Shown here piece after piece: positions 898-38,803 of a stretch of DNA of 41,979 nt. Position 1 is the stretch's first letter. The number at the start of each line of letters is the position of its first letter. Location: IMG/VR virus record IMGVR_UViG_3300023301_000028, positions 1 to 41,979 of that record; one strand, written 5' to 3'. The notes beneath the pieces are model-generated. The model worked only from the letters and a program-made list of their open reading frames with translations. It was not told the origin of the DNA and did not search any database. The position numbers were made by a program, and so were the translations under genes. Origin of the DNA: a virus (taxonomy: Duplodnaviria > Caudoviricetes).

Positions 898-1082
898 ATG
901 TAATTATTATCTACCTAGAAGATACCGAAGACGGCAATGTCTTGGTGTCTGCCGAGGCGCTTGGCAATCCAGAAGGAGCGCTTGATCTAGCCAATGAGGT
1001 GCTGTCCGAGATACTAAACGCACCCGATACAAACTTCTTACGTAGCAGCGTCTTTACCCGTCCTGCTCAGCGCGTGCAATAA
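894..1082 (+). CDS. small acidic hypothetical protein
   Basis: ATGA overlap with upstream gene; AAGGA SD; 3' end overlaps the convergent primase gene. Confidence 0.65.
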   Translation: MNVIIIYLEDTEDGNVLVSAEALGNPEGALDLANEVLSEILNAPDTNFLRSSVFTRPAQRVQ

Positions 1083-1859
1083 CTCTTCCCCCGCAGCTTG
1101 CGCTCCCACCTGAATTTCATAGTCATTAAAGTCAAACCCTGCAACGTCTGATGCCCAGTACGGACGTTTGGTTTGCATGGCAACTTTGATGCCAGTAGCA
1201 TCGTTGTCCGCCACCACAAAACACGCAGGGAATTCCTTAGCAACCTCAACCAGATTCCCCGCCGAGAAGGTAACGTGGATGCGGTAGCGTGTCTTCACAG
1301 CCTTTAAAGCCCTACGTACTGACAGAGCTGTTGCATAACCCTCAGTAATGATGTCTACCCCTTTGTTATCGAACGTAGCTATAGCATTCTTTGTGACCTG
1401 TCCAGACAAAAACTTCTTATTGCCGGTTTTATCTATCAACTGACAACCCACAAGTCTTCCCAAGATACGCATCGGTATCACTAAAAGATCGTTCCACACC
1501 CATCCTTTCTCGTCTGAAAAGCCTTTCTTGTCCAGATACGGGTGACTTTGCTTGGAACATTGTTTCAATATCCATGCAGCCCTGTTTGCAGCCTCTTTTT
1601 GGGCTCTCTGGCGCTCTTGTAAGGCTTGGGCAGCCCTTTCCCTGTCTTTGACTGGATCACGCTTATACGTCGATTCTTGCGCCCATCTAATAGGCTTTTC
1701 ATGGATTGCCCAATTCTGTAGAAATGCCACATCGCCGTCGTATTTGTAGCTGCCGTTAAAGTGATGCGGCTTATCTGTGGTTTTAACTCTGACCCACCGG
1801 TGCATGACCAGACTTTTAATAATTAAACCGTGAGCAAGCGCAAAGGCTTCGAACGTCAT
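1038..1859 (-). CDS. Toprim-domain primase-like protein
   Basis: HPYLDKKG, LLVIPM, Q-x-I...KKFL-x-G, ITEGYATALS (Toprim Glu) and VVADND (DxD); coupled to helicase by ATGA overlap. Confidence 0.85.
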   Translation of the reverse strand: MTFEAFALAHGLIIKSLVMHRWVRVKTTDKPHHFNGSYKYDGDVAFLQNWAIHEKPIRWAQESTYKRDPVKDRERAAQALQERQRAQKEAANRAAWILKQCSKQSHPYLDKKGFSDEKGWVWNDLLVIPMRILGRLVGCQLIDKTGNKKFLSGQVTKNAIATFDNKGVDIITEGYATALSVRRALKAVKTRYRIHVTFSAGNLVEVAKEFPACFVVADNDATGIKVAMQTKRPYWASDVAGFDFNDYEIQVGAQAAGEELLHALSRTGKDAAT

Positions 1860-3334
1860 GCCGCTCTCGCTTTAGACTTCGCAAACGCAATTGTCCGCGA
1901 CCGAATCCAATTTAAAGTTTGAGGGCTAGCCTGTTCTGGGGCGGATGATAACCCCCTTGGCTCAGAGCTAAATTTTTCTTTGTATTTATGAAATGCCCAC
2001 CCGGGCTTGTAACCTTTGGCTTGCGCGTAGTAAATAAGTTGAGAATAGAAGGATTGATTGTCTACGCGTAACTTCTTATTGGCGGCTGCAAGCTCTTCTA
2101 GTTCACCCGGAACTGTCTGGACAGTAGACATCCTGACCTTGACATATCCACAAGACCCGCACGTATCAGACTTAAACGTCCATAATACCGAACACTTAGG
2201 GCATTTAGATTCTGTCTTCTCTTTCTCTGTTGGTTCTTTCTTGGCTGCCTCACCGCCGTCTTTAAGCGTACTCACGCCATTGGCAAAGACATCCTCCCAG
2301 TCATCTCTAAACCGGATGAAATTTCCAGAATGGTCAAGCCACAATGCAAAATCCTTGCCCTCATGGCTACGCATGACCCGTCCCATCTGCTGAACGTGGC
2401 TGCTAAAAGACTTGGAGAATGGTCTGGCCGAGATGCCGATCATCACATCCGAGACATCAAAGCCTTTAGTCAGAATGTCTGTGGCAATCAGGCCGGTAAT
2501 TCTGGAATCAGGCTTAGAGAATTGCTCAATAGTTTGCCTCTTAAACTCGTCGTCTTCTTTGTACGAGATAGAGACAAAGTTATACCCTGCCGCATTGAAT
2601 TGCTTTTCCAAGTCTTTGCCGTGGTTGACTCCGGAGCAAAATACGATAGTCTTTCTAGGCTCACCAAAGACTTCGTGTGTCTTCTTGACCCATTCGGTCA
2701 CGATGTCCCCAGTAATCTTCATACCACGACTAGCCACTTCATCTGCCGCCCATTCACCGGCCAGTTTCTTCGCCCCGCTCATGTCTATCTCTTTGGCGAT
2801 ATAGACTTTCAATGGGCACAAGAAGCTTTTTTCTATCAGCGCTTCTGTAGAGGTCGCAGTAATGACGTTAGTGTAAAGATCATTAAGACCTTTCGTAAAG
2901 GGCGTGGCCGATAAGCCAATGACACGCATCTGGGGATTGGCTCTAATGTAGTCGAGCATAGACTTATGAAGGACGTGCGCCTCATCGTACAAAAGAATAT
3001 CGGGTGTCTTAATCTTTCCACGACGAGCCAAGGTTTGAATAGAACAAACTTGGATTCGCTCTGACGGTCTGTAGCGCCAATGGCCGGCTTGCATGACGCC
3101 GTGATCTATTTGATACTTGCCAAGTCTTAGACTGGTTTGCTCGACCAAGACAACGCGATCCATAACCATCGCACATCTTTGGTATTGACGAGCATATTCT
3201 TGCATTATTGCAATAGCGCACTCTGTCTTTCCTGCGCCTGTAGGTGCATACAAAAACTGTCTTGTGTGCCCTGCGTTAAATCCATCCTCAAGCTTCTGAA
3301 TTGCGTAAGCTTGATGCTCTCTTAGGTTAAGCAT
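1856..3334 (-). CDS. superfamily 2 DNA helicase (DExH, SSL2/RadD-like) with C-terminal Zn ribbon
   Basis: APTGAGKT (Walker A), DEAH, GLSATP, GFDV, QQMGRVMR; CPKC...CGSC; AGGAGA SD. Confidence 0.93.
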   Translation of the reverse strand: MLNLREHQAYAIQKLEDGFNAGHTRQFLYAPTGAGKTECAIAIMQEYARQYQRCAMVMDRVVLVEQTSLRLGKYQIDHGVMQAGHWRYRPSERIQVCSIQTLARRGKIKTPDILLYDEAHVLHKSMLDYIRANPQMRVIGLSATPFTKGLNDLYTNVITATSTEALIEKSFLCPLKVYIAKEIDMSGAKKLAGEWAADEVASRGMKITGDIVTEWVKKTHEVFGEPRKTIVFCSGVNHGKDLEKQFNAAGYNFVSISYKEDDEFKRQTIEQFSKPDSRITGLIATDILTKGFDVSDVMIGISARPFSKSFSSHVQQMGRVMRSHEGKDFALWLDHSGNFIRFRDDWEDVFANGVSTLKDGGEAAKKEPTEKEKTESKCPKCSVLWTFKSDTCGSCGYVKVRMSTVQTVPGELEELAAANKKLRVDNQSFYSQLIYYAQAKGYKPGWAFHKYKEKFSSEPRGLSSAPEQASPQTLNWIRSRTIAFAKSKARAA

Positions 3335-3374
3335 TTATATCTCCTGACCGGATACCGCCGGACTTCGGATTTGT

Positions 3375-4166
3375 TTAGGCTGCTGCCTTCTCTGCTTGCT
3401 TCTTCCAGTATGCCAATTGCTTGAGCATATCTGCATTCTTGGCTTGGAGCTGATCTCTTGACGACTTCAATGCGTGGATCTCTGCCTCTTGTGTTTTGAT
3501 CGTGGCACGCAATTCTGCCATAGTATCTTCGATGCTGTGTTTTTCTTCTTGAGGGATGTCCATAACCTTCAAGGCTAGGCGATCCTTTAATGCGGCCAGC
3601 TCTTCTACCAGCTCGACGTTGGCGTGCGCTAGCTCTTTCATTGCCTCATCTTCTTGAGGAGGCGCTACAACGGGAGCCTTGCCAACTGGCTTGATGGTTT
3701 TCTCTTGGCCATGCTTATTAATGTATTTCTTCTCGGTAACGTCAAGATCTAGTACCTTGCGAACCCGACCCACGAATGCCGAAGAAACTTTGCACTTGCG
3801 AGCAATAGCAGCGTCTGACCATTCTGCCCACTCCATATCATTGAAGAGTGTCATCACGGCTTTACGCTTGTCTTCGTTCGAACGGCGTAGGCCATGATCG
3901 TCATTGACCCCGACTGCGTACAGCACCGCGTCACGCAAAGTTCCATTCATAACTTTGACGTCTACATCCTTAGCTCCGGCTTTTTTATACGCAAAGTAAC
4001 GATGGTATCCATCTACCAAGTAGTTCTGTATCCCGTCAAAGAAAACCGTGAGCGCCGGAAACTTATCGCCCTCTATCATGGCTTCCGCATACTCAGCGAC
4101 CGTCTCCTGTGAAATCTCTGTGCGAGACTGGGTTTGTTTGTTGAGTGTAATTTCTGTGATTAACAT
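3375..4166 (-). CDS. ParB/Srx-fold protein with HTH and C-terminal coiled coil
   Basis: LVDGYHRYFA ParB motif; WSDAAIARKCKVSSAFVGRVR helix-turn-helix; heptad-rich C-terminus. Confidence 0.85.
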   Translation of the reverse strand: MLITEITLNKQTQSRTEISQETVAEYAEAMIEGDKFPALTVFFDGIQNYLVDGYHRYFAYKKAGAKDVDVKVMNGTLRDAVLYAVGVNDDHGLRRSNEDKRKAVMTLFNDMEWAEWSDAAIARKCKVSSAFVGRVRKVLDLDVTEKKYINKHGQEKTIKPVGKAPVVAPPQEDEAMKELAHANVELVEELAALKDRLALKVMDIPQEEKHSIEDTMAELRATIKTQEAEIHALKSSRDQLQAKNADMLKQLAYWKKQAEKAAA

Positions 4167-4231
4167 TGTGATCCTTTAGACGTGCGTAAGCCGCTGCGAG
4201 GGCAGTCGGCCGTGTGTTTGTGTGTGTTCAT
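4160..4231 (-). CDS. putative 23-aa leader peptide MNTHKHTADCPRSGLRTSKGSQC
   Basis: AAGGGGA SD just upstream; ORF overlaps the ParB start (ATG 4166) and stops at 4160. Confidence 0.45.
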   Translation of the reverse strand: MNTHKHTADCPRSGLRTSKGSQC

Positions 4232-4272
4232 TCTATCCCCTTGTAAACACGATCCCTCAACCGTGTCTAGTA

Positions 4273-4301
4273 ATTCTATACTTGTAATCTAACGTTTGCA
4301 A
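4273..4301 (-). promoter_or_regulatory. sigma70-type promoter for the ParB-helicase-primase operon
   Basis: TTGCAA (4301-4296), 17 nt, TAGAAT (4278-4273). Confidence 0.7.
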
Positions 4302-4344
4302 TACTGTTAATTTGTACAGGAAATTTCTAAATGCGCAAAAAAAT

Positions 4345-4616
4345 TCGCCCCATAGGCTATCCAAGGGTGAGAGCAGTGGCAGTGTGCAGTTACGCAGTAT
4401 GCCCTTAGCCCTCCCGCCTGACCCAAATCATCCTCAAAATTCCTTAGACGATTCCAGTCCTACCTGAGTTAATGTTCGTCGATCCGTGTAAGTTCACCAT
4501 AGCCACAGATCTTGTGTAGTCGCCATCCAACGCTACGAGGCTTATTAGTGAGGGGTATCACCTGCCTATGTTTCCTTCCACGCAGCCCATTTAGGCTCTA
4601 TCTATCGTGTGGAGAA
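4345..4616 (-). ncRNA. candidate ~270-nt multibranch structured RNA (family unknown to me)
   Basis: Closing helix CAUAGGC (4570-4564)/GCCUAUG (4357-4351) plus GGUGA/UCACC; internal hairpins GAUCUGUG/CACGGAUC, AAUCGUCU/GGAUGAUU and AGCCU/GGGCU, whose mismatches become G-U pairs on the minus strand; no credible ORF. Confidence 0.55.
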
Positions 4617-4626
4617 CGGGAGAAAT

Positions 4627-4742
4627 AAAAAAACCGCAATAGTCAATGCCCCCTTGGAACGCAGTCTTTGTGGGACTGAACCCCTTGCGGGGTGGGACAC
4701 TGATTATTGCGGTCTTCTCTCATCGGCGTTCCAATTCCGACA
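4627..4742 (-). ncRNA. C4/CI-like antisense RNA with upstream target hairpin and intrinsic terminator
   Basis: 20-bp outer stem 4713-4694/4652-4633 (19 pairs, 2 G-U) followed by U7; inner ACCCC-GCAA-GGGGU GNRA hairpin and CAGUC/GACUG hairpin; junction GCGUUCCAA (4662-4654) complementary to UUGGAACGC (4734-4726) in the upstream hairpin. Confidence 0.72.
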
Positions 4743-4752
4743 ATATGTAGTA

Positions 4753-4781
4753 ATTGTATACCGCATAAAACAAAAAGTAAA
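4753..4781 (-). promoter_or_regulatory. sigma70-type promoter for the C4-like RNA
   Basis: TTTACT (4781-4776), 17 nt, TACAAT (4758-4753); predicted +1 near 4746, just before the first hairpin. Confidence 0.6.
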
Positions 4782-4907
4782 GTGTGGGCTCGATAAAGCA
4801 CGATTTCCATTAGACAACAAAACATTGGGCGAAGAGTGCAGGTGCGTGCCAGAACCTTTGTTGCAACGCCCTTTGTAACATTGGGCGGCTAAGACCCAAC
4901 CCCACAT
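4780..4907 (-). ncRNA. candidate ~125-nt structured sRNA
   Basis: 5' end GUGGGGUUGG pairs with 3' end UCGAGCCCAC, followed by a U-rich tail; CGCCC/GGGCG and GGCACG/CGUGCU helices; 11-nt direct repeat; extended -10 immediately upstream. Confidence 0.42.
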
Positions 4908-4911
4908 TTAT

Positions 4912-4920
4912 ACAATATCA
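4912..4920 (-). promoter_or_regulatory. extended -10 element
   Basis: TG-A-TATTGT; weak -35 TGGTCA at 4941-4936. Confidence 0.4.
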
Positions 4921-5015
4921 CAAAGAAGAATCCCCTGACCAGATAGGCGAGGGGATTCTAGGGGACGCTCAGGAGATATTACCTGTTGGAGAAACAGACC
5001 AAGGAGGGACTTGGT
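4920..5015 (-). ncRNA. candidate ~95-nt sRNA with anti-Shine-Dalgarno loops
   Basis: ACCAAG-UCCCUC-CUUGGU and CUGUU-UCUCC-AACAG hairpins, linker GUAAUAUCUCCUGAGCGUCCCCU, then the terminator; own strong promoter whose predicted +1 coincides with the first base of hairpin 1. Confidence 0.68.
4921..4959 (-). terminator. intrinsic terminator
   Basis: Perfect 10-bp stem AGAATCCCCT/AGGGGATTCT (4927-4936/4950-4959), 13-nt loop, followed by UCUUUG on the minus strand. Confidence 0.65.
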
Positions 5016-5021
5016 GTAAAC

Positions 5022-5050
5022 ACTATACCAATAAACCTTTATCGCTGCAA
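5022..5050 (-). promoter_or_regulatory. strong sigma70-type promoter for the anti-SD sRNA
   Basis: TTGCAG (5050-5045), 17 nt, TATAGT (5027-5022), with extended TG at 5030-5029. Confidence 0.72.
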
Positions 5051-5494
5051 TAGCCACAGCGCCATAAGTAAGGCATCCGCTCTTCCGTGGTGTTTCACTA
5101 ACTTCAGCGGCGCTTCCGGCCACAGTCCCCTAGCTAACTCAAGACTTGCGCTTTTATCCGTTCCGATAAGCCCGTGGTGCTTCTTCCACACCTGAGGACG
5201 TACCATTGAGACACTCGCCCCCGTGAGCGCTGCCACGGCCTCTATAGATCCGGCCGCCCTCATAAACTTCCCCGACGAAGCGATCCCCTGCCCCGGACGA
5301 ACCCAGACATCCTCTATGGCAATCTTTGCTGGGTCACGCAATAACTTGTACAAGTCTATGGCCAGAATCCTACCGTCAAGCACAGGTAGATCCCCGCACC
5401 CTACGAATGATCCGTCCTCGCCTATAGCGCCCCAAGCCCCAGAAGAGCTCCCCGGATCAATACCGTAAATTATTTTGCATGACATACTTGACAT
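5039..5494 (-). CDS. RuvC-like Holliday junction resolvase
   Basis: IYGIDPG, IAIEDV, PQVWKK and GRADALLMA acidic RNase H-fold motifs; start may be 5485. Confidence 0.82.
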   Translation of the reverse strand: MSSMSCKIIYGIDPGSSSGAWGAIGEDGSFVGCGDLPVLDGRILAIDLYKLLRDPAKIAIEDVWVRPGQGIASSGKFMRAAGSIEAVAALTGASVSMVRPQVWKKHHGLIGTDKSASLELARGLWPEAPLKLVKHHGRADALLMALWLLQR

Positions 5495-5517
5495 CCTTGC
5501 AACACATGAATTATGAT
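5488..5517 (+). promoter_or_regulatory. sigma70-type promoter for the rightward recombination operon
   Basis: TTGACA (5488-5493), 18 nt, TATGAT (5512-5517). Confidence 0.75.
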
Positions 5518-5571
5518 GTACCTAATCTGTTTGGAGACAGGTGTTGTACGAGGATAACACAGGAGAGCATT

Positions 5572-5727
5572 ATGGACTACAGCGAAATAATTATTCGCAT
5601 GACTCAGCGTCTCAAGCAATACCAAGACGCGATTAACAAGCAAGACATTCCCGCAGCCAAGACGCTTGCAGCAGTCATTTTTGAACTTTCTGACGAGCTT
5701 TTGTTTACCACGCGGAGTATGAAATGA
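5572..5727 (+). CDS. small hypothetical protein (51 aa, MDYSEII...)
   Basis: AGGAGA SD at 5561 supports ATG 5572 rather than the track start at 5479. Confidence 0.7.
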   Translation: MDYSEIIIRMTQRLKQYQDAINKQDIPAAKTLAAVIFELSDELLFTTRSMK

Positions 5728-5867
5728 ACGCATTTTCTATTGCGTGCGAAGACGCATTCTACGAAACATTTAAAGACATATCGTTCCCAGACGATGCGGC
5801 CATACATATTTGGCGATCAGCATGGGCAGCAGCTATGAAACACGTTGAGGAGCACGACAATGAATAG
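5724..5867 (+). CDS. small hypothetical protein (47 aa, MNAFSIACEDAF...WRSAWAAAMK)
   Basis: Not in the ORF track; GGAG SD, ATGA overlap, fills the operon gap. Confidence 0.65.
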   Translation: MNAFSIACEDAFYETFKDISFPDDAAIHIWRSAWAAAMKHVEEHDNE

Positions 5868-6150
5868 TCAAGAGTTTAACGAAAAGGAAATGGAACTCAC
5901 ACGTATTCTTGTAAAAACTATAAAAGAATTTACTGACCAAGAAAATTTGGAAATGGGAATAAAAATTTCATTGCGTGCTTTGGTAACAGTCTCTGCCGGC
6001 ACAATATTTATGCTTAGCTCGCAGAATAAATATAGCGACAAAACGGTGTTGGAATATTTTGTTGATTCACTTATGAAATCGGTAGACATTTTTCAATCAT
6101 CCGCAGATCAATCCGCAGCAGTCATTAACAAAGCGATGGGGAAACAATGA
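5860..6150 (+). CDS. hypothetical protein
   Basis: GAGGAG SD before ATG 5860; overlaps both neighbours. Confidence 0.7.
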   Translation: MNSQEFNEKEMELTRILVKTIKEFTDQENLEMGIKISLRALVTVSAGTIFMLSSQNKYSDKTVLEYFVDSLMKSVDIFQSSADQSAAVINKAMGKQ

Positions 6151-24083: not shown

Positions 24084-24770
24084 ATGTATGTATATGTATG
24101 GAAAGACGCCGATGGCACGCCTTTTTATGTTGGCATGGCAAAAAACGTTCGACGCCCCAATCCAAAATCTGTTGGACATAGGAATGCAGCCTGCGTAGAG
24201 GCGGTAAAAAAGATTGGTGCAGACAACGTTATTATTGAACTTCATATAGCTCCAGACGCTGAGACCGCTAAACAAATGGAACGCGATCTAATCGAACGTT
24301 ATGGCAAAATTTCCAATGGAACGGGAACATTAACAAACATCGCAAAAGGTGGGGCATATCACAAAACAACTCAAGCGACCAAAGACAAACTTAAAACGTT
24401 ATGGCAAGACCCTGTTCATAGACAAAAAACCATACATCGAAAACCTAGAAATTTAGCCGACAGCACAAAACTTATACTGCGTGATAACTTGCAGAACAAC
24501 CCTGCCATGAAAACATGGTCTGAACGTAACGGCAAAGACGAATCTTTCGACGCAAAAAGAATAGCTGGTATTAAAGCCGCCCAACCTAAAAGAGCAGAAA
24601 AAATGCGCGACCCTGTTGCTTTAGCGCAGAGGAAAGAACGGTTAAAAGTTACCATGAGCTCCCCCGAGTATAAAGCCAAACGTGCAAAGTTTGATACCCC
24701 TGAGTACCGCCAAAAGCTTTCTGAGGCAAAGAAGCGATACTGGGCAGAAAAGAAGTTGCAGTTTACTTAA
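24084..24770 (+). CDS. GIY-YIG endonuclease, free-standing homing-endonuclease-like
   Basis: YVYVW...PFYVG...R...E..LI...LTN.AKGG; basic C-terminal repeats (YRQKLSEAKK); only plus-strand gene in the late operon. Confidence 0.82.
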   Translation: MYVYVWKDADGTPFYVGMAKNVRRPNPKSVGHRNAACVEAVKKIGADNVIIELHIAPDAETAKQMERDLIERYGKISNGTGTLTNIAKGGAYHKTTQATKDKLKTLWQDPVHRQKTIHRKPRNLADSTKLILRDNLQNNPAMKTWSERNGKDESFDAKRIAGIKAAQPKRAEKMRDPVALAQRKERLKVTMSSPEYKAKRAKFDTPEYRQKLSEAKKRYWAEKKLQFT

Positions 24771-29195: not shown

Positions 29196-29630
29196 TTAGC
29201 GAAAGATTGCAGCGGAAACTTGAGAGGTATCGACAAAAATATTACTAGAAGATTCCCTAGCGCACATTTTTATAGCTGCTGTGTTTCGTACTGGGGCAAC
29301 ATCTTGTTCGTTGTATGTTTTTGAAGTGCTTCCATTAGCTTGAAACGAGTAGTTAGCATCAGGCATAGCAGTAGCAAAATTAACCGTGTAGTCACCAGTC
29401 CCGTTATCAGTAATACTTGACACATTCCCACTAGCCCTAATAGCCACAGTTCCAGTGCCGTTAAAGTTCACCCAAGCCCTGCAAGCATACAAAGGTGCAG
29501 AGCCAGCGGCGTTTAGTGCTACAGTAATACGTGCAGCAGCAACATCACCTGTTGAGTCTTCACCATCAAATCCAGCTGTTGAATCAATGTCCGGCGTTGT
29601 AATGCCAGTTGTCCCATTTAATATAATCAT
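29196..29630 (-). CDS. short tail-fibre tip protein
   Basis: CRAWVNFNGTG...NVSSITDNGTGDYTVNF...DANY. Confidence 0.75.
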   Translation of the reverse strand: MIILNGTTGITTPDIDSTAGFDGEDSTGDVAAARITVALNAAGSAPLYACRAWVNFNGTGTVAIRASGNVSSITDNGTGDYTVNFATAMPDANYSFQANGSTSKTYNEQDVAPVRNTAAIKMCARESSSNIFVDTSQVSAAIFR

Positions 29631-30157
29631 ACTAACTCCTTTGCAAAATACTTTGTTGTGCCATTAACAATACGCTGGATTGTTGACCTAGAACAACCGT
29701 AAGCCTTTGCTAACTTTCTGGTGCTTTTATGCTCCATGTGTTCATATATGGCACAAATGTTATAAGCATGCGTTTCGGTAAATATAGCATTGGCTTTACC
29801 TGCATTTTTATGCATTAAGTTTAAATGATCTTCTGTAATTTTAATCAATCCGTTTACATAAGCGTGTTTTGAATTTTCTGATCTTGTTACCCATTCAAGA
29901 TTGCTAACAGCATTGTTAGCCTTATTGCCGTCTTTGTGGTTTACTTGTGGTTTGTTTTCTAAATTTGGAATAAATGTTTCCGCAATCAGTCTATGGCCTA
30001 AGTGTTGACTTTGAACCCCGTCTTTTCGTAGGGAATAAGTCCTATACCCAACTTGATTACCACCCTTAAGAATAATGGGTTGCCCTGTTTTTATTGAAAC
30101 AATTTCGCCATGTTTTGTGGCGGCATAAATTCCTTCAAAATTATTTATTGGTTTCAT
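29627..30157 (-). CDS. HNH homing endonuclease (NUMOD4/HNH_3/HTH type)
   Basis: HRLIAETFIPN...QVNHKDGNKANNAVSNLEWVT.SEN; C-terminal HTH; AT-rich relative to neighbours. Confidence 0.9.
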   Translation of the reverse strand: MKPINNFEGIYAATKHGEIVSIKTGQPIILKGGNQVGYRTYSLRKDGVQSQHLGHRLIAETFIPNLENKPQVNHKDGNKANNAVSNLEWVTRSENSKHAYVNGLIKITEDHLNLMHKNAGKANAIFTETHAYNICAIYEHMEHKSTRKLAKAYGCSRSTIQRIVNGTTKYFAKELV

Positions 30158-34424: not shown

Positions 34425-34736
34425 TTACGTTGTGCGTACAGTAACTCGTCCTACAAATGTCGTAATCGTCATTGCTAGAGGCTCTACAACTTGACCCCTG
34501 CTTTGAGGATAACCCGTGAAATCTGGTCTTGGATTGCGTAAAGCTTGCGGATCTTCAACTGGATACATACCTAACTGAAGCTGTGGTTGGTCTGGATTCC
34601 AGCACTCGGGACACGCTTTAATATTGGTATTTCTAGTCTTAACAATTAACTCTTTTAATTGACGTAGTTTATACCGGAATCCGCAAATATCACACTCTGC
34701 TATTGCTCGATTTCCGGATGCAAATCTATTACCCAT
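34425..34736 (-). CDS. Zn-finger-containing phage protein
   Basis: CDICGF...CPECW.PDQPQL...DPQALRNPRPD. Confidence 0.78.
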   Translation of the reverse strand: MGNRFASGNRAIAECDICGFRYKLRQLKELIVKTRNTNIKACPECWNPDQPQLQLGMYPVEDPQALRNPRPDFTGYPQSRGQVVEPLAMTITTFVGRVTVRTT

Positions 34737-35391
34737 GTTGCCACCTATTACTCTTGCGTAGATTCTCTATGGCAGGAATAACTTGTAAATTAGTCGGAAC
34801 GTGCAAGCCAGAAACGGTTTTACCTGTTAATGGAATTATATGATCTACGTGCCACGGAAAGCCAAACATTTTGGTACGCATTTCGGCCAATTCATAAGCC
34901 TGCGCTATCATCCAATGGTCGTCTTCGGTAAGCCATGCTGGTACTCTATTCTTTCGATCTTTACGATTACGTGCCTTAGCAGCACTCGTTAATCCCGGAT
35001 TCTTTTGATCCCACTTTGCCCTAGCAATTCTACGTGCTTCTGGCTTGTTAATGGAATAATCGCGATCCATCTTTGCTTTGCGTTCTTTGTTTTTCTCGCA
35101 CCAAGATTTTTTGCTAGCAGCAATACGCTCTGCATTTTGTGCGCGATATTGTTGACCAAAAGCTTTGATGCAAGCTTTGCATTTGTTGCCTTTTGCCGGA
35201 AAACTTCCTGCATCCCTAATTGTTCCGCACACATAGCAGGGAAGCGGGGTCTTTTCTTTTTTAGGCAATAAAGCTTTTTCTGCCTGTAAACGCAACCGAC
35301 GAGATTTGCTGCGCTCTAAAAATATTTCCTTATTTTTAAGGTATTGAGCGTGTGCGTAAATTTTTCTCGCGGCAAGGTTTTTTATTGGCAT
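34729..35391 (-). CDS. HNH endonuclease, free-standing
   Basis: CYVC/CKAC Zn motifs; PAWL...WHVDHIIPL.G..VSGLHVP.NLQVI...EN..KSN. Confidence 0.88.
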   Translation of the reverse strand: MPIKNLAARKIYAHAQYLKNKEIFLERSKSRRLRLQAEKALLPKKEKTPLPCYVCGTIRDAGSFPAKGNKCKACIKAFGQQYRAQNAERIAASKKSWCEKNKERKAKMDRDYSINKPEARRIARAKWDQKNPGLTSAAKARNRKDRKNRVPAWLTEDDHWMIAQAYELAEMRTKMFGFPWHVDHIIPLTGKTVSGLHVPTNLQVIPAIENLRKSNRWQHG

Positions 35392-38308: not shown

Positions 38309-38803
38309 TTATACATGATAGCGCCCTATAATTTCTCCTGACTCACGCATAGCTGATAACTTTGCTTTCGATAAAATTTGCATTGCACTATTGCGTGTTT
38401 TATCTACTATACACGGGTGTAGGCGACCATGTGCTACGGCTGATAAAACACGCAAATTTGTGTAGTGGTTGTTCTGGTGATCACCGTCAATATGGTCTAC
38501 CTGAGCGCCTTCATACAACTCCCCAACAAAAGCCTGAGCTACAAGACGATGAACTAAGAAACTTTTACCAGGCACCGTGCGTACAGAACCGTCTCTTAAT
38601 TTAATTTCTATGTATGGCAAAGTACGACCCCATGCGCTACGCTTTTTAGGTTGGAGGCGCATTATTTTTTCTGGTATAGGAACCATGCACCCAGATTTTC
38701 CACGGCGATACCTTTGCACGGATTTAACTCGCCCATGGTCACTGACTTCATACATTCCTGCGTACCCATGTACGGGCACCCAACGTTCAGTTAGCATTTC
38801 CAT
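38309..38803 (-). CDS. NUMOD4-HNH homing endonuclease
   Basis: ERW.PV.GY.G.YEVSD.GRVKS (NUMOD4); VHRLVAQAF...QVDHIDGD..NN...NLR. Confidence 0.9.
   Translation of the reverse strand: MEMLTERWVPVHGYAGMYEVSDHGRVKSVQRYRRGKSGCMVPIPEKIMRLQPKKRSAWGRTLPYIEIKLRDGSVRTVPGKSFLVHRLVAQAFVGELYEGAQVDHIDGDHQNNHYTNLRVLSAVAHGRLHPCIVDKTRNSAMQILSKAKLSAMRESGEIIGRYHV

Follow-up and report, generated by a model that had tools for sequence, protein, structure and literature searches.

In ColE1, the RNA II pre-primer starts replication and the antisense RNA I controls it. Structured elements of 223–349 nt, the ARRPOF, GEBRO and PAGEV motifs, have been reported in plasmid replication regions (PMC5737381), and a region containing ARRPOF is described as supporting replication without a rep gene (Weinberg et al. 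2017, PMC5737381). The CI RNA of P4 is reported to control replication-gene expression via premature termination (PMC4825925). In the accounts of P4 CI (seqA/seqC), P1/P7 C4 (RF01695) and Gifsy-1 IsrK, a promoter is followed by a short leader hairpin complementary to the loop of a long-stemmed downstream RNA, the loop is variable and target-specific, and the arrangement is placed ahead of replication functions (PMC4825925, PMC5320573). For GIL01, the host SOS repressor, and not one of the phage, is reported to act on early replication promoters (PMC6182141).

The stretch of DNA analysed here (41,979 nt from a tailed phage, hereafter the window) resembles these systems in part. The gap ahead of the replication genes of this aquatic phage contains a conserved sequence of about 270 bases, here named the large RNA, that is absent from RNA catalogues (Rfam). 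The joint reading that we favour, whose truth we regard as evenly balanced, is that of an origin of replication that depends on transcription and whose copy number is under antisense control, together with SOS-gated replication genes. As in ColE1, replication is proposed to begin from a long folded transcript, with no Rep DNA-binding domain and under antisense control. Unlike in ColE1, to whose RNA I and RNA II Rfam revealed no similarity, the control RNA is encoded on the same strand and its action would be attenuation. Helicase and primase, or else a truncated initiator, are supplied by the phage itself, and the persistent RNA-DNA hybrid of the ColE1 type, with RNase H cleavage and Pol I extension, is hypothetical here. 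In contrast to ARRPOF, GEBRO and PAGEV, the large RNA belongs to another family, occurs in tailed phages and lies behind a CI-like attenuator. That attenuator differs from P4 CI, C4 and IsrK in having one complementary site, no seqC or a2/b2 target and no Rfam match, and in being followed by the large RNA and not by a kil, icd or ant ORF. Compared with GIL01, this phage is tailed, has dsDNA and carries a box of the E. coli type, whose binding is predicted, and no gp7-like partner was identified. The features are as follows.

1038–1859, minus strand: Toprim primase gene.
1856–3334, minus strand: SF2 helicase gene (the SF2 and Toprim pair spans 1038–3334).
3335–3368, minus strand: conserved hairpin immediately ahead of the helicase ribosome-binding site.
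3375–4166, minus strand: ParB-like gene (phrog_1033).
4160–4267, minus strand: P4 leader, with a 5' hairpin (4248–4267) and an upstream ORF.
4301–4273, minus strand: promoter-like site P4 (TTGCAA-17-TAGAAT), for the parB-like/helicase/primase operon.
4304–4319: box CTGT-N8-ACAG, which fits the LexA consensus of the E. coli type, with 2 bp between it and the P4 −35.
4353–4622, minus strand: large RNA, about 270 nt, with covarying helices (54 phage sequences).
4391–4399, plus strand: C-GCA-G triloop hairpin of the GNA DNA mini-hairpin type, opposite the variable 3' arm of the large RNA.
4627–4716, minus strand: CI/C4-like RNA, with a long stem, two inner hairpins and a seqB-like loop (4654–4662).
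4720–4745, minus strand: leader hairpin, with a seqA-like loop (4726–4734) complementary to 4654–4662.
4781–4753, minus strand: promoter-like site P3 (TTTACT-17-TACAAT), for the attenuator and large RNA.
4784–4906, minus strand: sRNA2, a structured unit kept in homologues, in which two loops are invariant.
4920–4912, minus strand: P2, extended −10-like site with no −35.
4919–5015, minus strand: sRNA1, with a C/U-rich loop in its 5' hairpin and anti-Shine-Dalgarno-like tracts.
5050–5022, minus strand: promoter-like site P1 (TTGCAG-17-TATAGT), 8/12 consensus.
5039–5494, minus strand: Holliday-junction resolvase-like gene (phrog_1770, E 4e-27).
5488–5517, plus strand: sigma70-type promoter of the exonuclease/Erf/SSB operon, 11/12 consensus, kept in L008, L002, L005 and L016.
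5525–5542, strand unset: inverted repeat, hairpin or operator, with a 5–6 nt spacer (five sequences).

The fold of the large RNA pairs 88% of 3169 cells across the 54 sequences, against 36–43% in slid controls, with double changes at 49 of 60 pairs; the structure was derived from the same alignment on which it was scored. Rows L339, L355 and L366 were dropped from alignment A3 on account of long inserts. Pseudoknot-type pairings join 4616–4618 with 4606–4608, positions 4588 and 4592 with 4570 and 4568, 4524–4531 with 4468–4474, and 4494–4498 with 4366–4370, and a lone pair joins 4466 with 4455. At the 3' pseudoknot, one of four pairs has double changes, and complementarity averages 5.8 nt within a sequence and 5.1 nt after swapping. 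As a single sequence the large RNA folds no better than shuffles (z −0.44), and its model R1 gives 162 bits on a training sequence. No open frame is conserved across it: the sequence is stop-free over 95% of its length, on either strand, in 9 of the 54, and open-frame lengths spread over all three frames. Rfam gave no match in the window, nor to the large RNA in relatives. Homologous regions bear out, by covariation, the proposal of a preliminary description of this DNA that the gap holds a cassette of separate, conserved, structured minus-strand RNA units. Its remark that mismatches become G-U pairs on the minus strand is likewise upheld, by conserved G-U pairs in the large RNA and by the better folding of the C4-like unit on that strand (z −6.2 vs −3.6).

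One 17-base word of the family leads to an estimate of about 210 IMG/VR stretches. Searches with R1 found no full-length copy in 5, 151, 5 and 5 bacterial genomes (prophages), a degenerate word was present in 93 of 401 genomes with no large RNA at any of the 20 loci checked, and family member L350 had no match among plasmids. A literature search that covered few subscription papers returned no account of the large RNA or of the arrangement, and fragments of it may be among the 29–151 nt candidates of Fremin et al. 2023 (PMC10690425).

The function of the large RNA is suggested by its neighbours. In two lambda-O-like initiator families, A5 and A6, it is confined to forms without the N-terminal DNA-binding half. 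In A5 it lies just upstream of 20/20 truncated and 0/56 full-length initiators (9/9 vs 0/25 after deduplication), an association that may reflect one or two events, since RNA-bearing loci served as seeds for the family and its truncated forms are closely related. In A6 the figures are 29/70 and 0/9, and after deduplication 17/51 and 0/8, which is not significant (p 0.09). Five contig-edge loci were dropped from these counts, and four weak partial matches were scored as negative. HTH_36, DUF6291, DUF1376 or Phage_rep_O is found in longer relatives of the A6 protein, which match it through their C-terminal part. Within 1.5 kb, then, the RNA accompanies none of the full-length initiators (0 of 56 and 0 of 9), and the absence of an intact DNA-binding initiator beside it matches the ColE1 type. 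Betaproteobacteria-1 (RF02932), unrelated in sequence and fold and never co-detected with the large RNA in the loci scanned, fills the equivalent slot in related phages such as L004; it lies upstream in 6/20 truncated-initiator loci without the large RNA vs 0/20 full-length ones. The large RNA goes with initiators that have lost their DNA-binding half, which points to replication initiation and not to a lysis/lysogeny decision. We conclude that this RNA, predicted to be multiply pseudoknotted, probably acts in cis as the origin, replacing the DNA-binding half of the initiator.

GNA hairpins have been reported at the priming sites of phage G4 and RSF1010 (PMC13037366). Such hairpins occur on the strand opposite the large RNA, in its 3' arm, in 16 of the 54 sequences (shuffles: mean 0.22, maximum 2) and on the RNA strand in none, the arm being at least 25 nt long in only 31. 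A ColE1-type R-loop exposes the non-template strand, and the GNA hairpins lie on the template strand, which counts against the origin reading. They favour an alternative that we find distinctly unlikely, in which the element acts as folded single-stranded DNA, a loading site for primase or helicase that transcription merely unwinds. Covariation, as stated for the plasmid motifs (Weinberg et al. 2017, PMC5737381), cannot separate RNA from single-stranded DNA; however, the G-U pairs conserved in the helices, like the lone tertiary pairs and the pairings between loops, are consistent with an RNA of the transcribed strand, and the GNA loops and the fold are on different strands.

The CI/C4-like RNA ahead of the large RNA ends in a terminator-like U-tract. 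The leader loop and internal loop share at least 7 nt of complementarity in 43 of 53 loci, against 261 of 2756 swapped pairs (19 of 72 loci were dropped because the long stem was undetected), and we conclude that their pairing is a phage-specific code. A promoter match of at least 7/12 precedes the leader in 47 of the 53 loci (no null was run). A downstream target of the CI-like RNA (seqC or a2/b2) was absent over 600 nt in 47 loci (complementarity 5.9 nt within a locus and 6.0 nt after swapping). The preliminary description had a C4-like RNA followed by a large RNA; the leader, the loop code and the covarying fold agree with this, whereas no Rfam C4-type model matched over 3900–5900 at E up to 10, or in two sets of 20 related loci. 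The attenuator probably limits synthesis of the large RNA. The same attenuator stops 14–18 nt short of the initiator ATG in 3 of 33 full-length loci, and the attenuator and large-RNA slot is exchanged among relatives, with breakpoints at 4320 and 4740–4782 even in near-identical contigs.

It is possible, if somewhat unlikely, that the large RNA is instead a regulatory leader, a processive antiterminator or a free orphan ncRNA or RNP for early genes, with no part in initiation. Its position would fit, with an attenuator before it and varied genes after it, many copies being followed by genes unrelated to replication (for example terminase-like genes and small ORFs, read by eye), as would the other, non-homologous structured elements in the same slot in relatives and the governing of P4 replication genes by CI RNA through premature termination, as reported (PMC4825925). 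Yet most close relatives have a separate P4 after the large RNA, so that read-through is unneeded, and neither the link to truncated initiators nor the opposite-strand GNA hairpins would be explained.

The support for the promoter-like sites comes from homologues and not from this genome alone. The four sites of the preliminary description exist as strings, each with a hairpin at the predicted +1, but in this genome their number is at chance level (4 found, 4.0 expected), and a promoter scan recovers only those at 4781 and 4301 among the four. The P1 −10 element is retained in alignment A7. In the P4 leader, a 23-codon upstream ORF (4231–4160) ends over the parB start; a Shine-Dalgarno sequence, ATG and ORF of 17–24 aa are present in 12/12 parB leaders, although the frame is not conserved. 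The preliminary description had overlooked this start.

The CTGT-N8-ACAG motif, given as the E. coli LexA site in PMC8565304, has its sole match in the 42-kb window at 4304–4319 (0.67 expected by chance). In 12/12 loci (the window and its 11 closest ParB-like relatives) the box is found between positions −143 and −172 relative to the parB start, a conservation that is in part plain kinship, as the spacer is near-identical among close relatives. It was also found in L051 and L055, and at P3 in L016. It was scored against the E. coli-type consensus, which may not be that of the host. The known LexA motifs of other phyla gave no clear signal upstream of distant ParB-like genes (L199 and L057 dropped), the alpha-type motif having 7 matches in 160 kb upstream vs 6 in 472 kb downstream, at scattered places. 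We conclude that the helicase-primase promoter P4 is likely repressed by host LexA at this putative binding site. The box, too, had been overlooked.

The preliminary description proposed that both early operons are governed by a small-RNA cassette, which would replace cI/cro in switching between lysis and lysogeny; we consider this very unlikely. In its favour, neither an integrase nor an S24 peptidase nor HTH_3 turned up in G001, a complete relative of 63 kb (87 of 118 ORFs in one scan), and the P4 leader loop is complementary to tracts of sRNA1 (7 bp), as is the helicase ribosome-binding site, the best of 65 sites in the window genome. In relatives, however, the helicase site ranks 5th of 23, 3rd of 18 and outside the top 7 of 110, the 11-nt match is not kept in L008, and no conserved mRNA target of sRNA1 was found in the window genome and relatives. 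The CI-like RNA lacks a downstream target, a conserved operator-like box for a host protein lies at the replication promoter, and L003 and L037 have HTH/Cro-like genes beside the same RNAs (read by eye), which speaks against RNA-only control in place of a protein switch. With no integrase or repressor seen in G001, there is no sign of lysogeny, and the absence of a repressor cannot be read from the record of the window, which is only 66% complete. Nothing links the RNAs to the recombination operon that they were said to control.

sRNA1, which is conserved in 6 distinct loci, has a terminator-like hairpin (4927–4959) and, in the window, a folding z of −4.0. It resembles the Betaproteobacteria toxic sRNA (RF02278), a short, C/U-rich, anti-SD-like RNA with a terminator, which matches related locus L305 below threshold (34.8 bits vs 50) and does not match sRNA1 of the window. 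For sRNA2, 14 of 18 predicted pairs have double changes (12 sequences), while the single sequence folds no better than shuffles (z 0.36); the unit is conserved, and the 11-nt repeat in it is not kept in homologues.

The phrog_1770 match confirms the resolvase named in the preliminary description, and none of the three gap ORFs of at least 60 aa has a family match, in line with its finding of no convincing ORF. Judged from homologue starts, the resolvase-like gene probably starts at 5485; the first ATG of its ORF is overlapped by the −35 of the exonuclease/Erf/SSB promoter. The inverted repeat at 5525–5542 lies at the start of the rightward transcript; its spacer of 5–6 rules it out as a LexA box. 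The 51-aa first ORF of that operon has no family match. Against annotated phages, the region gave just two 35-nt matches and L304 none, and no RNA run was listed among the sequencing runs that carry the region.

Sequence comparison shows the covarying fold, the loop code, the truncated-initiator association and the conserved box; the mechanism that follows we infer. Host RNA polymerase would begin at P3 and would pass the U-tract because the leader and internal loops of the nascent RNA pair earlier than the long stem can close. Processed CI-like RNA already in the cell would pair with the leader loop in trans, so that the stem closes and transcription stops, which would limit copy number and exclude phages sharing the code. 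Once folded, the read-through RNA would open the DNA near its 3' end, either through an R-loop or by extrusion driven by supercoiling; loading of primase or helicase may be aided by the GNA hairpin. DNA damage would strip LexA from P4 and raise the supply of ParB-like protein, helicase and primase, with sRNA1 as a possible broad translational brake.

A wider proposal, which we offer tentatively and think unlikely, is that folded RNA replaced the origin-binding domain of the initiator in a widespread class of tailed phages. Such an RNA-protein initiator would mark and open the origin and recruit the remaining helicase-loading domain, or helicase-primase directly, with interchangeable RNA families (the large RNA, Betaproteobacteria-1 and others) and a 7–10 nt code defining incompatibility groups. 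Large ornate RNAs of bacteria and phages are mostly without a known job, and the large RNA family offers a testable one: it appears to replace a missing initiator domain in two families, within a small swappable cassette. It also hints at the same role for Betaproteobacteria-1, an orphan family in Rfam, and the SOS-type box suggests how phages without repressor or integrase could time replication to host DNA damage. If the large RNA is indeed an origin, RNA-dependent initiation with antisense copy control would extend beyond plasmids and be common in aquatic phages.

The virus record of 41,979 bases is 66% complete, and relatives were drawn from IMG/VR and metagenome contigs. Among sequencing runs, the sole match to the whole stretch was labelled hypersaline lake, which may be its source, and two partial matches freshwater. 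The gap and its flanks are arranged as follows.

from 5572, rightward: exonuclease, Erf and SSB genes
5039-5494: resolvase-like gene
5022-5050, 4912-4920, 4753-4781 and 4273-4301, minus strand: promoter-like sites P1, P2, P3 and P4
4919-5015, minus strand: sRNA1
4784-4906, minus strand: sRNA2
~4627-4745, minus strand: CI/C4-like attenuator
4353-4622, minus strand: large RNA
from 4166, leftward: ParB-like, SF2 helicase and Toprim primase genes

The four promoter-like strings of the preliminary description, with hairpins at their starts, are present at these positions. Within the window genome alone such strings are no more frequent than chance predicts (4 found, 4.0 expected), and the question of their reality is settled by syntenic relatives, where identity is 78-97% in the non-coding blocks of the gap and 69% in the resolvase protein. 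In 47 of 53 loci the C4-like leader is preceded by a promoter-like match of at least 7/12, a count made without a null. The Rfam search suggested earlier for the gap returned no match, and no conserved reading frame was found across the large element. We conclude that the RNA cassette is real, conserved and uncatalogued. At 5488-5542 divergent -10 elements overlap, and the rightward start has a conserved inverted repeat, possibly an operator for some protein. Up to two additional tandem promoter-hairpin-terminator units lie between sRNA1 and the resolvase gene in L002 (2640-2790), L046 and L122. Elsewhere in the window, homing-type, endonuclease VII and HNH nuclease genes (24084-24770, 34729-35391 and 38309-38803) are late-region insertions, and ORF 29627-30157 of the structural region contains a weak HTH_3 match below the cut-off (29654-29719, minus strand; E 7.8e-5).

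The attenuator RNA starts at ~4746 with a small hairpin, followed by a long stem with a closing U-tract (z -6.2); the loop of the hairpin (4726-4734) is complementary to the internal loop of the stem (4654-4662). Among 72 surveyed loci with the large RNA the long stem was detectable in 53, and only these were scored: leader and own stem matched over at least 7 nt in 43 (mean 7.8), whereas swapped pairs did so in 261 of 2756 cases (mean 5.2); the letters differ from phage to phage. This is the working principle of P4 CI and seqA (PMC4825925, in part), and variable specificity loops are likewise described for C4 in excerpts of PMC5320573; c4 motifs in phages are among those of Weinberg 2010 (PMC2864571, in part). 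The attenuator works like CI/C4, yet is not a member by two tests, because nothing in Rfam matched it and a search of 47 loci found no downstream target (own 5.9, swapped 6.0). Geometrically, a loop 20 bp up a closed stem would be out of reach for a 7-bp hairpin, and leader pairing should therefore precede stem closure or act in trans. Pairing with the internal loop before the stem closes would give read-through; pairing in trans would give termination.

The small RNA sRNA1 is kept in six distinct loci. Complementarity links its tracts to the P4 leader loop (7 bp in four of five, one mismatch in the fifth) and to SD sequences, but tracts and sites are short and nearly invariant. As a candidate sRNA1 target, the helicase site ranks 1/65 in the window genome; in relatives it ranks 5/23, 3/18 and outside the best 7 of 110. 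For sRNA2, 14 of 18 pairs show double changes (12 sequences). An upstream ORF (4160-4231 in the window, minus strand) is present in all 12 P4 leaders; it has a strong SD and 17-24 codons, is often His-rich, is not conserved in frame, and stops on or close to the parB start. A hairpin (3335-3368, minus strand) immediately precedes the helicase SD; its loop is constant and its stem varies freely. It can be seen in most of 47 relatives (a strict pattern finds 23), is duplicated ahead of an inserted gene in L016, and looks like a translational operator.

The E. coli LexA motif is common to most Betaproteobacteria. That motif, CTGT-N8-ACAG (PMC8565304, in part), has a single match in the window, against 0.67 expected; the match, at 4304-4319, is 2 bp off the -35 of P4. 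Across 138 phage-like loci surveyed, there were 21 boxes in 160 kb upstream versus 12 in 472 kb downstream. Of 213 non-redundant ParB-like loci, all 12 closest (window included, at least 56% identity) have the box at -143 to -172. It lies at -76, ahead of their promoter, in L051 and L055; L016, without P4, has one box ahead of P3, and the majority of distant relatives lack it. In L136 two tandem boxes, 1091 and 1070 nt ahead of the parB-like start, lie over a promoter-like site that precedes a resolvase-like ORF. GIL01 is the precedent for host LexA in place of a phage repressor (PMC6182141, in part). In G001, a complete relative of 63 kb, integrase, S24 peptidase and HTH_3 are all absent, and the 87 of 118 ORFs scanned include no integrase- or repressor-type PHROG. 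The RNA-only switch proposed earlier seems to us very improbable.

Homologues of the large RNA occur in loci whose ParB-like proteins are 37-64% identical. One 17-base word was found in 120 stretches in 36 of 64 parts of IMG/VR (estimated total ~210), and the profile matched 78 of 86 non-redundant stretches. Nested helices and crossing pairs were derived by mutual information from 54 aligned sequences, out of 57 representatives less than 85% identical (mean 56%). In this fold 88% of alignment cells pair and 49 of 60 pairs show double changes (slid controls 36-43%), a comparison that flatters the fold because the structure came from the alignment on which it was scored; single-sequence folding does not set the RNA apart from shuffles (z -0.44). 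The crossing elements are:

a 5' helix of three pairs
a loop-junction pairing in which two pairs covary
a loop-loop helix of six pairs, double changes in 5/6
a lone pair, paired in 54/54
a weaker 3' pairing, double changes in 1/4 (own 5.8, swapped 5.1 nt)

A sister family shares the 5' domain in Burkholderiaceae genomes, adjoining primase genes (L235, L214), and ends in an interrupted G-tract, unlike the window family. Its place in records of Zeimonas arvi and Burkholderia pseudomultivorans is directly downstream of the parB-helicase module. Its members are:

L235, 8362-8620
L214, 8619-8870
L564, 1501-1721
L408

No Rfam 15 family matched the large RNA, and the literature search, partial for its sources, found no description, although parts may be among the Fremin 2023 models. 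ColE1 RNA II is among its nearest precedents. So are ARRPOF, GEBRO and PAGEV (PMC5737381, in part).

In 16 of the 54 sequences the variable 3' arm has a triloop hairpin of the form C-TNC-G, with all four N seen (at most 2 in 200 shuffles). Read on the opposite strand, it is of the GNA DNA mini-hairpin type reported at priming sites of G4 and RSF1010 (PMC13037366, in part), and none of the 54 has such a hairpin in GNA sense on the RNA strand. That the element works as ssDNA is unlikely. The GNA hairpin sits on the template strand, which counts against an origin role. The slot from P3 to the box is exchanged among relatives: near-identical contigs have breakpoints at 4320 and at 4740-4782, and unrelated elements fill it in L008, L002/L005/L016 and others. 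One of these, a second and unrelated gene-free element of ~380 nt, follows a CI-like RNA in L002 (3209-3590), L005, L016, L055 and L121; further types occur in L008 (4915-5400) and L180/L189/L197.

In several phages an ORF of ~100-120 aa follows the large RNA. Longer relatives of the L291 protein bear HTH_36, DUF6291, DUF1376 or Phage_rep_O, only the C-terminal part being common, and the gene after the L282 ORF weakly matches lambda P (E 0.002). For two lambda-O-like initiator families, A5 and A6, 80 loci each were classed by N-terminal extension and searched with R1, the model of the large RNA. In A5 it was found at 20/20 truncated loci, lacking the N-terminal DNA-binding half, and 0/56 full-length loci (deduplicated 9/9 and 0/25); in A6, at 29/70 and 0/9 (deduplicated 17/51 and 0/8, p 0.09). 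These counts represent few independent events, because the A5 set started from loci bearing the RNA and related loci have their states in common. Betaproteobacteria-1 RNA lies upstream in 6/20 picked truncated A6 loci without the large RNA and in 0/20 full-length ones; the attenuator ends 14-18 nt ahead of the initiator ATG in 3/33 full-length loci. Betaproteobacteria-1, an Rfam RNA, occupies the replication-leader slot of phages in L004 (2754-2870), L436, L438, L443, L455, L462 and L465. Many copies of the large RNA precede non-replication genes, which counts against an origin role; a regulatory or orphan RNA is a conceivable but doubtful reading. The chances are about even that the large RNA would act as a replication origin of these phages.
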